Notes: generated from the letters alone by a model not told the origin. A stretch of DNA of 64,000 nt from Alkalispirochaeta sp. (GCA_965601925.1 OZ271854.1:4864001-4928000), one strand, 5' to 3'; shown: positions 38,010 through 47,977, counted from the stretch's first letter. A program made the numbers and translations.

Positions 38010-39800
38010 TTACAACATTCTCACTCTCGTACGAAAACTCTCCGAGAACACGTAAGCCGCGCCACCGGACGGTATTGTCGAAGATTCATTGCGCGCTCCA
38101 ACGATCACATAGTCACCATTGACCGCCACACCCCAGCCAAATGAGGCACTTTGTGATGCTTCTGGGGCCAGTAGCTTCACTCCGGTCCGCCACGCGTTTG
38201 AGCTGCTGCGGCGAAACACATATGCCGTGCCAGCCCCCTCATATCCGACACTCTCGCCCCACGCTCCGATTATGAGACAGTCCCCGTCAATCGCTACATC
38301 ATGACCGAAACGATCTCCCACTTGTCCGCCCTCCGGCGTAACCAGCTTTGTCCCGGCATCCCATTCGTTTACACCAGTGCGCCGAAACACGTATGCGGTA
38401 CCAGCAGGTGGGTCTCCCGAGAGCGCGTTAGGAGCTCCTACAACGGCGTAGTTCCCTTGGATTGCCACACCCTCGCCGAAATAAGCCTGCGCTTGCGCGT
38501 CTGGCGCCACCAGTTTCACTCCGGCATCCCAGGTGTTCACGTCGGTGCGCCGGAACACGTATGCCGCGCCAGCGTTTACACCTCCCGCGGATTCTTGATG
38601 AGCCCCAACGATGACGTAGTCCTCGTGGATCTCTACGTCCTCGCCGAAACGGGCATCCGCTTGCGCATCTGGAGCCACCAGCTTGACTCCGGCATCCCAA
38701 GTGTTTACGTCGGTGCGCCGGAACACGTATGCCGCGCCAGCGCTGCTACCTCCGGCGTCCTCGTTGTGCGCTCCTACGACGACATAGTCCCCGTCGATTG
38801 CTATGGACCTTCCAAAACTGTCGCCGGGCTCGCGGTCCGACGCTACCAGTTTCACTCCGGCATCCCAGGTGTTTGCACCGATGCGGTGAAATATGTACGC
38901 GGCATTCCCAGTCTGAGCTCCAATGGCAATATAGTCGCCGTCTATCGCTACACTCCAGCCAAACAAGGCGTTCGGAAAGATGTCTGGCGCTGCCAGCTTC
39001 ACTCCTGTATCCCAGGTGTTTACGTCGAGGCGCCGGAACACGTACGCCGCACCAGAGTTGCTACCTCCGGCATCCTCTTGTGGAGCTCCTACGACCGCAT
39101 AGCTCCCACCGATCGCTACACTTCGACCGAAAATGTCTCCGGGTTCTGCGTCGAACGCAACCAACTTCGTCCCATCATCCCATTGGTTGGTAACTAAGGA
39201 TAACAAGACCGCAGAGATCGACGAATCGCGACTCTCCAGCGCACTATCGACTTCCGCATCGCTGTACACATCCAGTACACCTCGCGCCTCCGCGGCGTTG
39301 GCTGCTGCCATGAGACCTCGGGCATATGACGACGTGAGACTATGCATACTCATTGCTGTACCATCGCCGACCGCAAACAGAACGCTCCCGGGAGAAAGTG
39401 TCGCCATGATACCGGCGGTGCCGTCAATGGTGACCGTGTCGGTGCCTTCGTTCACGACGAAAAGGTACCGGCCCGGCCGCCCAATCGGCCCGTTGAGAGT
39501 CAGGGTCAACGGGGTACCGTTGGCGACACTAACAAGGAGGGATGAACGGTAGGCGCCAAGATCTATTGCCTGCGAAGTAGAAATCTCTACTTGATCTGCG
39601 ATCATCCGCCCGATAGCAGATTCCAACTGCGTATTGTCCGCTCCGCTTGGTATCAACCCCGCGTTCTCGATAACGTGTATTAGCTCGTCCTGAATCGCGT
39701 TGCGATCCTCGGCGGTGATCGCGGTACCCTGTCGGCCCGAGTTACGGTCCTCGTCGACGTAGAATCCGTTGTCGCTCCCGGGGGCGTTCGTGCGTCTCAT
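38010..39800 (-). CDS. Tail fibre, anchor class B, with a C-terminal 7-repeat FG-GAP beta-propeller
   Basis: Same N-terminal anchor as 35025..35885; seven FG.SVAI.G...VGA...GAAYVF repeats; follows a gp48-like gene. Confidence 0.85.
   Translation of the reverse strand: MRRTNAPGSDNGFYVDEDRNSGRQGTAITAEDRNAIQDELIHVIENAGLIPSGADNTQLESAIGRMIADQVEISTSQAIDLGAYRSSLLVSVANGTPLTLTLNGPIGRPGRYLFVVNEGTDTVTIDGTAGIMATLSPGSVLFAVGDGTAMSMHSLTSSYARGLMAAANAAEARGVLDVYSDAEVDSALESRDSSISAVLLSLVTNQWDDGTKLVAFDAEPGDIFGRSVAIGGSYAVVGAPQEDAGGSNSGAAYVFRRLDVNTWDTGVKLAAPDIFPNALFGWSVAIDGDYIAIGAQTGNAAYIFHRIGANTWDAGVKLVASDREPGDSFGRSIAIDGDYVVVGAHNEDAGGSSAGAAYVFRRTDVNTWDAGVKLVAPDAQADARFGEDVEIHEDYVIVGAHQESAGGVNAGAAYVFRRTDVNTWDAGVKLVAPDAQAQAYFGEGVAIQGNYAVVGAPNALSGDPPAGTAYVFRRTGVNEWDAGTKLVTPEGGQVGDRFGHDVAIDGDCLIIGAWGESVGYEGAGTAYVFRRSSSNAWRTGVKLLAPEASQSASFGWGVAVNGDYVIVGARNESSTIPSGGAAYVFSESFRTRVRML
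38040..39182 (-). repeat. Seven tandem coding repeats of ~168 bp (56 aa), FG-GAP type
   Basis: Recurring WDAGVKLVA...AYVFRRTDVNT, also visible at DNA level (ccggcatccca, gccggaacacgta). Confidence 0.9.
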
Positions 39801-40354
39801 AGCCCGTCCTCCTGGTCGTTACCGCACCGCATGACACCGCATACGCCGACGCCGCAGCGCCCGACGGAGCTGCCGGAGAGGGCGATTACGTTGAGCGTCC
39901 GCGCTACGTGCACCGGAAAGATGCGCCCCGCGATGCCGACGAGGCGCGCGTACTGGTCGACCGTCTCGACGTCGCCGTTCAGCCGAATCGAGAGTGGCCC
40001 CGTCTCTTCGATCAACACGCGCGAAACCTCGGGATTGTCGGCACGCGGAAATTCGATGGTAAGTTGTCGCTGCAGATACTCGAGGCTTTGCCCGCCCACG
40101 GCGGCGTTGGCGGCGCGTATGCGTTGCTTCATCACCTCTCGGTTTGTGTTGGGAGCGTACGCGACACCCAGCTCCTCGGCCCACTCGGGGATCGCCTCAT
40201 CGGCTCTCCCCGGGATCGATTCGTCCACGGCACCTCTGAGATAGGCGCGGACGCGGCCGAGAGACGCGGCAAGGGCGTCCAGGAGCGCCGACCAGTTGCC
40301 CCGGGCCCTCCAGGGTAGACCTGACGGTAAGAGCAGGCGCAGTACGCGTTTCAT
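39797..40354 (-). CDS. Mu gp48/YmfQ-like baseplate wedge protein, copy 2
   Basis: LLLPSGLPW, E..P..A.E.IPEWAEELG, GGQSLEYL and PVH motifs; follows baseplate J. Confidence 0.8.
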   Translation of the reverse strand: MKRVLRLLLPSGLPWRARGNWSALLDALAASLGRVRAYLRGAVDESIPGRADEAIPEWAEELGVAYAPNTNREVMKQRIRAANAAVGGQSLEYLQRQLTIEFPRADNPEVSRVLIEETGPLSIRLNGDVETVDQYARLVGIAGRIFPVHVARTLNVIALSGSSVGRCGVGVCGVMRCGNDQEDGL

Positions 40355-40372
40355 CGATTGCATCGCTCCTCC

Positions 40373-46254: not shown

Positions 46255-46259
46255 AGCTC

Positions 46260-46886
46260 CTACTCCCTTCCCGCTTCCATAAGTCCCGCCATACCGAGAC
46301 CCGCTTGTGCGGTCGGCTCCTGGTTCAGAATCGTGAGGCCCCCGATCACCGGCTCCATCTCCGCCGGGGCGACGCGATCCAGGAGGTTCAACAGGGCGCG
46401 CAACGCGGGGATATCCTGTACCTCCCCGGTAACGCGGTAGTACGCCACCGGATACCTCCCGTCCCTGGGGGCCCCGGGGGGATACCACACCGGATAATCT
46501 TGCGCCGCCATACGCCCCGCCATGCCGCGACCGGCCATGCGCGAGGAGGCAAACCGCACCGGCTCGATCCTCACGTTGGGAAAGGCGACCTGCACGACCT
46601 CATTGAGCGCCTCCAAGGATTGCCCCTTGCCGGCGCGAAACGCCTGAGTAACCACGGTGCGACGCGTACCGACCGGCTGCGTCGCGTCATGGGTCAGCCC
46701 CAGCTCGGCGTACCAGTCGGGCAAGGTCTCGGTCGCCGTCGAGGGTCCCGCCTCGCGGATCGAGTCGGCGAGAAAGGTCTGCGCGCGCTTCACCGAGAGC
46801 GCTATCGCATCCAACACCGCCGTCATCCCGAGGCCGAAGAGGCGCTCCGGAACGAGCCGGCGAATCATACGGGAGACTGAATCCAC
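46260..46886 (-). CDS. Mu gp48/YmfQ-like baseplate wedge protein, copy 1
   Basis: EAGPSTATETLPDWYAELGL, GQSLEAL and APAEM motifs; follows baseplate J. Confidence 0.75.
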   Translation of the reverse strand: MDSVSRMIRRLVPERLFGLGMTAVLDAIALSVKRAQTFLADSIREAGPSTATETLPDWYAELGLTHDATQPVGTRRTVVTQAFRAGKGQSLEALNEVVQVAFPNVRIEPVRFASSRMAGRGMAGRMAAQDYPVWYPPGAPRDGRYPVAYYRVTGEVQDIPALRALLNLLDRVAPAEMEPVIGGLTILNQEPTAQAGLGMAGLMEAGRE

Positions 46887-47977
46887 ACGACACCTTCCTC
46901 TTCGAGTCTTGCCAACTGGCCGACCTCCACGGTGTGGCTCGCGATCGCCACGCCGCCAGCGTTTTTGAGCGTCACCGTCGCCACCTCGGCCCCGGCGGCG
47001 ATGGCGATTGAGGTAATCTTCGCCGCCGACACGACGTCGCGCGGACCCGGCTCATCGAGATACTGCCGCGGGCGCCGGTCGTAGAGGTGGGCTTCTACCG
47101 CCGAGTCGATCGCATTCCGCACCTCTTGGGTGTTGGGCTCTAGGCCTGCGATCTCGACGCGAAAGATGAGTTCTGTGGGAGCGGCCACGGTAACTGCGGC
47201 GGCGCGAATGGGGGCCCGCCGGAGGTCGGTAACGTACGAACGCACCTCCTCGATTTTGGCCGCATTCGGTATGCGCAACGCAGGGTCCGGGTCGTCGGTG
47301 ATCGGAAAGAGGGCCAGCGACCCCGCCTCGGTGCGTACCACGTGCGCCTCGGCGATCCCCGGTACCTCGGTCGCCCACAAGACCCAGTCGGGGATAGCGC
47401 CGCCCTGGGGCGCGAGACGGCGACGGAGGCGAACCCTCGCGCGAAAGGCCTCGGTCGACTCGGCGTCCTCGCCCACGACCTCCGTCGCCAGCACCATACC
47501 CTCCGCCTCGAGCCCGGCGAGGGGCGTCACCACGGCGATCGTCGCACCGTCGGCGAGACTCGCCCCGTCGCCGCGTTCGGTCGCTTCCAACACGACGGTC
47601 GCCGAGCCCCCGGTAACGGTCACGGCATTCTGCGCGACGTACGTGCGTCCGTTACCGCGAAAAAGCCGTCCGGCGGGAACGGTCGTACCGTCGACGCCGG
47701 CCGCGCGTGCCGTGCCGCGCCACGCCACCGCCGATTTGGGTACCAGTCCCAACTCGGCGCCGCGCTCGGCGAGCGCCGCGGCATCACACGTCGCGATAAA
47801 GATCTGCCGCCGCACCCAACCGCCGAATCGATATACCAGAGCCAGGGCGCCCGCCAACGCGGTCGCCAAGATGCGCCACGTCGAGCGGGGAAGGAGCGGC
47901 GCGGCCTCGCCGGTAGCCGCCTCTATGTCGGCGAGAATCTGGTCGCGGATCTCCTGTATCGTCGGTATCCTCGTCAC
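46865..47977 (-). CDS. Baseplate J / Mu gp47-like protein, copy 1
   Basis: IPTIQEIRDQILADIE, RQIFIATCD, GEDAESTEAFRARV and PQGGA..DW..WA.EVPG motifs. Confidence 0.9.
   Translation of the reverse strand: MTRIPTIQEIRDQILADIEAATGEAAPLLPRSTWRILATALAGALALVYRFGGWVRRQIFIATCDAAALAERGAELGLVPKSAVAWRGTARAAGVDGTTVPAGRLFRGNGRTYVAQNAVTVTGGSATVVLEATERGDGASLADGATIAVVTPLAGLEAEGMVLATEVVGEDAESTEAFRARVRLRRRLAPQGGAIPDWVLWATEVPGIAEAHVVRTEAGSLALFPITDDPDPALRIPNAAKIEEVRSYVTDLRRAPIRAAAVTVAAPTELIFRVEIAGLEPNTQEVRNAIDSAVEAHLYDRRPRQYLDEPGPRDVVSAAKITSIAIAAGAEVATVTLKNAGGVAIASHTVEVGQLARLEEEGVVWIQSPV

Follow-up and report, generated by a model that had tools for sequence, protein, structure and literature searches.

A head-less Mu-type tail operon in Alkalispirochaeta with one tail core, two baseplate-wedge kits and a miniature tape measure

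Head-less contractile tails are encoded on bacterial chromosomes by the R-type tailocins, among them the multi-fibre tailocins of Pseudomonas chlororaphis and Kosakonia and the R-syringacins, the last of Mu-like ancestry. We describe a head-less contractile tail locus in a 64,000-nucleotide stretch of an Alkalispirochaeta sp. genome (GCA_965601925.1, OZ271854.1:4864001-4928000; hereafter the window, with positions counted from its first letter). The locus encodes a single Mu-type tail core, two sets of baseplate-wedge genes with four fibres, and a tape measure of only 128 amino acids (aa).

Several described systems resemble this locus in part. The components of the phage Mu tail (PDB 9KI1; PMC11915804), namely sheath, tube, frameshifting chaperone, gp43 to gp48 and fibre, are all recognisable here; our J family profile matches Mu gp47 (E 4.5e-41), and the gp48-1 profile matches Mu gp48 (E 4e-4). 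Mu, however, has one gp47, one gp48, a 690-aa tape measure and a head, and swaps fibre tips by DNA inversion on one anchor, whereas this locus has two wedge kits, a 128-aa tape measure, no head and two anchor classes. Uncultured lambda-headed, Mu-tailed (pro)phages of spirochaetes (L051, L052, L011, L056, L055 and L162) have sheaths 42-57% identical to ours and the same gene order, and both of our anchor classes occur among them. Unlike our locus, these relatives carry head genes (in the two annotated loci), a full-size tape measure (42 of 42) and one J, the gp47-like wedge protein, with no gene between gp43 and gp44 (94 of 94).

R-type multi-fibre tailocins carry up to three fibre genes per cluster with distinct killing spectra; their variety lies in fibres (and chaperones), and their particles are about 130 nm long (PMC6629978). 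The parts of that account cited here report neither a second wedge per hub nor a miniature tape measure, and we see no lysis cassette in our cluster. The simple baseplates of the myophages Pam3 and Sf14 carry twelve fibres or fibres of two types, which agrees with two Gly-rich motifs that we find in gp48-1, but all of their fibres are served by one wedge gene set (PMC11821841). Extracellular contractile injection systems (eCIS; Afp, PVC, AlgoCIS) are also head-less contractile particles, as is predicted for our locus. Their fibre anchor classes eBAP1-5 track baseplate type (PMC12923769), and their tape measure sets particle length, the shortest engineered AlgoCIS measuring about 89 nm (10.64898/2026.05.27.728243). 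In contrast to eCIS, our locus matched no AAA+ loader or Afp-type families, and its components are of the Mu gp43-gp48 type. Finally, phage-inducible chromosomal island-like elements (PLEs) of Vibrio encode their own tape measure, chaperone and a baseplate part (the hub; 10.1101/2025.01.29.635557). They are mobile elements that become packaged and take sheath, tube and fibres from a phage, whereas a whole tail is encoded here. A literature search, with most subscription papers outside its scope, returned no spirochaete tailocin-like particle, no duplicated wedge on one hub and no natural miniature tape measure; the supplementary eCIS/tailocin catalogues of PMC12923769 and 10.64898/2026.08.24.746745 could list such loci.

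The genome is a single contig of 5.05 Mb, and the tail operon runs on the minus strand from 53277 down to 38010 (Table 1). It begins with a small gene, a terminator-like gene, sheath, tube, the chaperone with its frameshift, a short open reading frame (ORF) and gp43; these are followed by J1, gp48-1, fibre D, fibre C and a 61-aa ORF, and then by gp44, gp45, gp46, J2, gp48-2 and fibre B. All reading frames in the operon are open and coupled. The original prediction of two J-gp48 modules sharing a single tail core proved correct: whole-genome tblastn found one copy each of sheath, tube, gp43, gp44 (hub), gp45 (spike) and gp46, alongside the two J(gp47)-gp48 modules and four fibres of two anchor classes. 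Kit 1 (J1, gp48-1, fibres D and C) sits between gp43 and gp44, and kit 2 (J2, gp48-2, fibre B) follows gp46. The earlier remark that this departs from the Mu order also held. We gathered 208 related loci (L008-L215), 94 of them distinct and containing gp43, gp44 and J, and found J between gp43 and gp44 in 0/94 and a second J (at least 100 bits) in 0/94, although the loci reach unequal distances downstream and a distant second J could be missed. The two-wedge layout is thus not the standard one in related phages. Nor do we attribute it to an assembly join, because contigs of two sequencing runs of the same sample, which are not independent of the window, span 38713-54000 in one piece with no differences listed.

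The phylogeny of J1 and J2, proposed earlier as a check, gave different results for the two halves of the protein. Residues 1-85 of J1 and J2 are 73% identical, compared with 44-61% to six tabulated phage Js, and in a tree of residues 1-170 (22 rows) J1, J2 and both of their orthologues form one clade with support of 95. For residues 171-362 (22 rows), the same clade is rejected by the approximately unbiased (AU) test (p-AU 4e-5), and each C-half is closest to the Js of ordinary single-J phages. The full-length tree places J1 with L056 and J2 with L055/L162 (support 99 each). We dropped the idea that J1 and J2 derive wholly from two lineages, since a single J1+J2 clade was not rejected by the full-length AU test (p 0.59) and foreign origin is confined to the C-halves. 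Within J2, about 95 aa of the barrel domain are duplicated; the extra copy shares 30% identity with the segment before it and is absent from the J2 orthologue.

In the Mu baseplate, gp46 and gp43 are contacted by helices from the N-termini of gp47 and gp48, and the pin domain is close to the hub. Contacts from one wedge to the next are made by a handshake at the rim, and one wedge contains two gp47 conformers (PMC11915804). Read on this structure, the grouping of the N-halves but not of the C-halves suggests that both Js offer a similar face to the single core and differ at wedge-wedge and fibre contacts. The half-by-half phylogeny in this way lends support to the proposal that one tail core accepts two wedge kits.

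The gp43-J1 junction carries a likely trace of how the second kit arose. It opens with ATGTCTGA, the same as the real gp44 start, and a 22-codon ORF joins the gp43 stop to the J1 start; another frame, chosen after looking, resembles the gp46 C-terminus, with 3 of 1000 shuffles reaching its score. The junction is likely the scar of a deleted gp44-46 copy. In the history that we propose, the hub-to-J block would have been duplicated, the first gp44-46 copy deleted with coupling kept, and the J C-half, gp48 and fibre of the second copy replaced from another phage lineage. Trees of core genes did not single out one source lineage for the hub, with supports of 47-89 and gp44-46 joining L055/L014/L053 at 83.

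The fibre anchors of C and D are 68% identical over 72 aa and those of A and B 63% over 63 aa, with 31-38% between classes, so by sequence all four are homologous, in two sub-classes. We found 58 single-wedge relatives with a fibre, of which 23 carry a C/D anchor and 33 an A/B anchor (2 unassigned). In a gp48 tree of 56 rows, from which four relatives with gp48 length outside 160-245 aa had been dropped, all 23 C/D phages and gp48-1 (24/24) form one clade with support of 99 and no A/B row inside. gp48-2 falls outside this clade, where its place near L055, L162, L078 and L062 is weakly supported. For the same set of 53 phage rows, anchor class needs a single switch on the gp48 tree but two on that of J; one phage, L053, combines a C/D-type J with an A/B fibre, and its gp48 lies outside the C/D clade. 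These data support gp48, not J, as the docking partner that chooses fibre class, which fits the docking of the Mu fibre N-terminus on a gp48 loop (PMC11915804). The original prediction of kit-specific fibre docking therefore survives in its first part, in that anchor class tracks the kit, and changes in its second, in that gp48 rather than J appears to be the partner. The L053 prophage also has an unusual order, J, fibre, gp48 (18276-21021), with the fibre gene ahead of gp48.

A Gly-rich motif occurs twice in 24/24 C/D-class gp48s and once in gp48-2, which lacks the internal loop; in a weak alignment, the internal loop of gp48-1 falls at about the position of the Mu docking loop. We infer that the Gly-rich motifs are docking loops, in which case each kit-1 wedge could take two fibre trimers, in keeping with the twelve fibres of Pam3.

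The outlying fibre A, at 35025, does share the A/B anchor as claimed earlier, but it starts with MDRT rather than MRRT and lies on the opposite, plus strand. Fibre A and its two neighbouring ORFs form the native cassette after gp48 in the related phage L073, and the region upstream of fibre A is fairly AT-rich (minimum GC 0.325), so fibre A is plausibly an alternative fibre for kit 2. We rejected fibres A and B as an invertible segment: their anchor DNA is 63% identical, no long inverted repeat pairs them, and contigs gave no convincing inversion joint (the three joints listed have 20-22-letter sides). The FG-GAP part of fibre B (38010-39250) is integrin-alpha-like and 32-37% identical to host FG-GAP proteins at about 523 kb and 2.655 Mb, and its tip was possibly taken from a host surface protein.

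The tape measure ORF (49731-49345) encodes 128 aa, compared with 435-623 aa for the ORF between chaperone and gp43 in 42/42 related loci, or about a quarter of normal size. A profile of the 42 phage tape measures (497 positions) matches the C-terminus of the miniature protein at positions 448-493 (E 5e-10 vs single sequence); the N-terminal match is weak (positions 6-22), and a Ser/Gly/Ala/Pro-rich linker lies between the ends. Only the end motifs of the full-length helical tape measure of Mu-type tails are thus present. We identified six other short homologues in other assemblies (118-147 aa as called, 37-76% identity). A search restricted to proteins of 70-224 aa returned three at 64-76% identity and one further cluster member, and a length-unrestricted search gave five hits: P0127 again, two more short proteins (46% and 38%), a 1996-aa protein matched through low-complexity sequence, and an ordinary 425-aa tape measure matched in its C-terminal motif only. 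Because the six short homologues keep a near-invariant C-terminal stretch of 42 residues and vary in the linker through indels, we read the recurring short tape measures as a pattern of selection, not of one recent deletion. An alignment of the short proteins had no match in viral contigs and, in 400 genomes of the class, matched the C-terminal motif only, in two long frames of 471 and 512 aa; no Atlas hit was usable for the miniature protein.

Two published ratios give a sense of the length that such a ruler might specify. In Mu, a 690-aa tape measure corresponds to 30 rings of about 35 Å, and its C-terminus is bound in the centre of the baseplate and needed there (PMC11915804); in AlgoCIS the ratio is 0.229 nm per tape-measure residue (10.64898/2026.05.27.728243). 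Extrapolated far outside their measured ranges, the Mu ratio predicts 5-6 rings or about 20 nm for 128 aa, and the AlgoCIS ratio 29 nm. By analogy with the Mu structure, the miniature tape measure would keep the hub-plugging C-terminal motif and the N-terminal motif, and growth of tube and sheath would end at about 5-8 rings, where the gp37-like protein would cap them.

Two of the relatives, L051 and L011, carry genes for terminase, portal and capsid immediately upstream of the same tail genes. Hidden Markov models built from 23 terminases, 24 portals and 28 capsids of the relatives found no TerL, portal or major capsid match in our genome. We used these models because Pfam searches (Terminase_6N, PhageMin_Tail and Terminase_3), although negative, are weak evidence: PhageMin_Tail and Baseplate_J both missed the second tail cluster of this genome. 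The sole head module found, at 3.71-3.72 Mb, belongs to a separate, unrelated prophage with its own tail-like and lysis-like genes, roles assigned from sequence and order. Among 35 ORFs scanned between 33.4 and 64 kb there was no integrase, replication or capsid-remodelling gene, and no att-like duplicate of the end of the bounding tRNA-Met was found nearby.

This gene content matches no described class in full. The own-family terminase, portal and capsid, the integrase and the att repeats of a complete prophage are missing; of the integrase, replication genes and partial tail set of a PLE-type satellite, neither gene type was seen, and the tail set is complete. The locus has the head-less contractile cluster on the chromosome of an R-type tailocin, but not the linked lysis cassette. 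Among the cluster ORFs we matched no AAA+ ATPase or Afp-type terminator or wedge Pfam family, the hallmarks of eCIS, and a search limited to the cluster found no membrane complex, TssA or ClpV, the hallmarks of a type VI secretion system (T6SS). On its lack of head genes and its conserved 128-aa miniature tape measure, we consider that the element is not a phage.

We favour, at somewhat better than even confidence, a domesticated, R-tailocin-like particle predicted to be about 20-30 nm long, whose one hub would accept wedges of either kit. It is predicted to display as many as four kinds of fibre for binding targets. Each wedge would consist of gp46, two J and gp48; kit 1 would dock fibres C and D through gp48-1, perhaps one per Gly-rich loop, and kit 2 would dock fibre B or A on the single loop of gp48-2. 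Pure kit-1 and pure kit-2 baseplates seem somewhat likelier than mixed rings, because adjacent wedges would join through the divergent parts of J. The most likely action is fibre binding, contraction and puncture of the envelopes of neighbouring cells, with release relying on lysis functions elsewhere in the genome. Although R-tailocin-like in predicted action, we do not class the element as an R-tailocin, because no linked lysis cassette was found. A more specific picture, which we put forward only tentatively and would not bet on, is that of a natural miniature Mu-type injector of 5-8 rings, with a disordered 120-residue ruler, wedge kits of two different phage lineages on one hub, baseplates either pure or alternating (3+3 on a threefold hub) and four fibre types, one of which would end in an FG-GAP propeller.

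If the particle assembles, it bears directly on two standing questions, namely the minimum length at which a contractile tail still works and the capacity of a simple baseplate for exchanging or mixing wedges; the rule from single-wedge phages, that anchor class goes with gp48, predicts which fibre pairs with which wedge. The miniature injector, if real, would fall well below the length of any contractile particle in the literature consulted for comparison, and would be retargeted through wedge swaps, not through fibres alone.

The distribution of the element bears on these readings. We identified orthologues of the sheath (P0002, 81.7%), J1 (P0058, 66.6%) and J2 (P0112, 71.7%) that all list a longest contig of 345,583 bp, so a second lineage appears to retain both wedges. 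The 98 other genomes of the order contained one J match and one distant sheath, and locus searches using single proteins gave no matches. Related phages of both wedge classes do occur in spirochaete genomes, and those close homologues that bear a name belong to Spirochaetales.

Several observations count against a selected miniature particle with two working kits. The element was not found in 16/16 other genomes of the genus, many of them incomplete, unlike tailocins fixed at one locus, and the miniature tape measure was found in 0/98 other genomes of the order, many also incomplete. The short homologues lie on contigs of 550-4,595 bp, and the two distant ones, P0131 and P0132 (550 and 955 bp), may be truncated where their contigs end; the short-protein search returned no short tape measure from the 345,583-bp contig, and this is the one genome for which a miniature tape measure is shown together with two Js and the loss of the head. 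J1 is somewhat less similar to its orthologue (66.6%) than are Js in pairs of intact phages whose sheaths are about as similar (72-82%), and the full-length AU result above leaves J1 and J2 compatible with a single clade. As gp48 and fibre genes are adjacent, linkage alone could explain their co-travel, and switching events are few. A stroke of 10-15 nm may be too short for crossing a whole envelope. Finally, searches of the cluster turned up neither a holin nor an endolysin, nor any clear membrane protein.

The rival that survives best, though we consider it unlikely, is a decaying mosaic of two prophage tails that would yield no functional particle, its second kit and short tape measure being relics. 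Its patchy occurrence (0/16 congeners), its place beside a tRNA together with a toxin-antitoxin-like pair and an inverted fibre cassette, the deletion scar ahead of J1, the internal duplication in J2 that its orthologue lacks, and the failure to see lysis genes would all be at home in such a remnant. Decay fits less well with an operon whose frames are all open and coupled, with short tape measures that recur at 37-76% identity with near-invariant C-termini, and with intact orthologues of both Js at 67-72%; moreover, every tail gene is retained while every head gene is lost.

The PLEs, which make chimeric tails of satellite and phage parts (10.1101/2025.01.29.635557), suggest a second rival: an anti-phage or hijacking device, PLE-like, whose miniature tape measure and spare wedges poison or enter the tails of related lambda-headed myophages. 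Such a device would need no lysis gene, and the element has one kit for each of the two wedge classes found in phages of spirochaete genomes. We nevertheless think it quite improbable, as a decoy would have no use for the whole tail encoded here, sheath and tube included, or for four fibres with distinct tips, and the 35 ORFs scanned held none of the integrase, replication or capsid-remodelling genes looked for.

It is more doubtful still that J1 and J2 are the inner and outer copies within every wedge, a heterodimer comparable to the two eCIS wedge proteins, or that one kit is idle. The two gp47 conformers of each Mu wedge (PMC11915804) and the bundle-forming N-half common to J1 and J2 are what a heterodimer would lead one to expect, yet a fixed heterodimer needs one gp48, while here a separate gp48 and fibre class go with each J, and the nearest relatives of either C-half are found in ordinary phages with one J. 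The weakest rival, in which the miniature tape measure is a hub plug and no ruler and the tail a long or variable T6SS-like or polysheath-like polymer acting in the cell or at the membrane, draws on the replacement of the helical core by a low-complexity linker of variable length and on the absence of a visible lysis gene, but is very improbable given that the cluster had no match to a membrane anchor, a TssA-like cap or an AAA+ ATPase, that the N-terminal motif, chaperone frameshift and terminator-like gene are retained, and that an eCIS tape measure without its helical middle gave shorter particles of discrete length (10.64898/2026.05.27.728243).

Table 1. Features of the tail element and its surroundings, in window positions.
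Feature	Position	Strand	Remarks
AT-rich intergenic stretch, likely promoter region	53270..53585		upstream of tail operon
Small first gene, 86 aa, no family	53017..53277	-	occupies the position of head/connector genes in related phages
Tail-terminator-like gene, Mu gp37 position	52356..53000	-	no Pfam/PHROG match; role inferred from position
Tail sheath, single copy	50869..52392	-	phrog_165 E 7e-91; probable start 52359
Tail tube, single copy	50486..50899	-	phrog_4699
Tail assembly chaperone and frameshift extension	49769..50466	-	PF10109, PF06528 (weak); slippery T-run intact
Miniature tape measure, 128 aa	49345..49731	-	N-terminal motif, Ser/Gly/Ala/Pro linker, C-terminal motif
gp43 tube initiator (DNA_circ_N)	48035..49348	-	
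gp43-J1 junction, 22-codon mini-ORF	47974..48042	-	overlaps gp43 stop and J1 start
J1, gp47-like wedge, kit 1, 370 aa	46865..47977	-	Baseplate_J E 2e-35
gp48-1, 208 aa	46260..46886	-	two Gly-rich G-x-G-x-x-G motifs, internal and C-terminal
Fibre D, 358 aa, C/D-class anchor	45178..46254	-	phrog_9777
Fibre C, 343 aa, C/D-class anchor	44106..45137	-	41% identical to fibre D
61-aa ORF, no family	43924..44109	-	overlaps fibre C stop and gp44 start
gp44 hub, single copy	42861..43931	-	
gp45 spike, single copy	42235..43074	-	PF06890 weak; probable start 42849; HxH near C-terminus
gp46 wedge 1, single copy	41833..42231	-	PF07409
J2, gp47-like wedge, kit 2, 487 aa	40373..41836	-	internal barrel duplication
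gp48-2, 188 aa	39797..40363	-	internal loop missing; one C-terminal Gly/Cys motif
Fibre B, 596 aa	38010..39800	-	A/B-class anchor and seven FG-GAP repeats (putative beta-propeller); PF14312 E 6e-89
BrnT/CopG-type toxin-antitoxin-like pair and 108-aa ORF	36838..37816	+	BrnT weak, CopG_antitoxin above cut-off
Inverted cassette: fibre A (286 aa, A/B anchor) with 184-aa and 120-aa ORFs	35025..36821	+	
tRNA-Met bounding element	34709..34782	-	

Homologues of the terminator-like gene directly precede the sheath in related phages, and the slippery T-run of the chaperone is identical in 42/43 relatives. The toxin-antitoxin-like pair is placed between the two fibre blocks. The AT-rich gap upstream of the operon reaches a minimum GC of 0.275 over 120 nt, in a genome of GC 0.60 with 44 regions at or below 0.30. 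A promoter scan was at chance level and no regulator gene was recognised; within the divergent promoter region, an exact palindrome, TTTGAC-N3-GTCAAA (53430-53444), is unique in the genome and a possible operator.

Divergent from the tail operon, an ORF at 53586-56198 (+) encodes 870 aa with two N-terminal repeats and a hydrophobic, Gly/Ala-rich C-terminus, and has no family match. Its C-terminus shows a weak Atlas likeness (0.83-0.90) to the pre-toxin domains DUF637 and PT-TG, and a single-sequence fold had a pLDDT (predicted local distance difference test) of 34; the product could be cargo or unrelated. This ORF opens a stretch of lower GC (0.47-0.57).

Elsewhere in the genome, a second, unrelated head-less contractile tail cluster lies on the minus strand at G000:C1:153051-165366 (L225:8051-20000, L226:1-366). 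It encodes a sheath (phrog_205), tube, chaperone, a tape measure of normal size (463 aa), hub, amidase, J and fibre. This cluster also begins behind an AT-rich gap beside a host gene, its sheath was found in none of 98 further genomes from the order, and its fibre has a domain in common with fibre B (39% over 115 aa). The prophage that holds the only head module (G000:C1, ~3695600-3731000; L231-L233) is apparently a complete HK97-like one, with integrase-like, replication, head, non-contractile tail and lysis-like genes.

Two related phages have additional ORFs near the tail genes. In L033, an otherwise single-J phage, a 201-aa ORF upstream of the terminator gene (8127-8732) has a weak J-like match (52 bits), and in L011 a 245-aa 'minor tail protein' ORF (12344-13081) lies between chaperone and tape measure. 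Lastly, beyond the 870-aa ORF in the window, a 150-nt stretch is repeated at 76% identity (56323-56470 and 56954-57105), the second copy being the 3' end of an adenylate cyclase gene.

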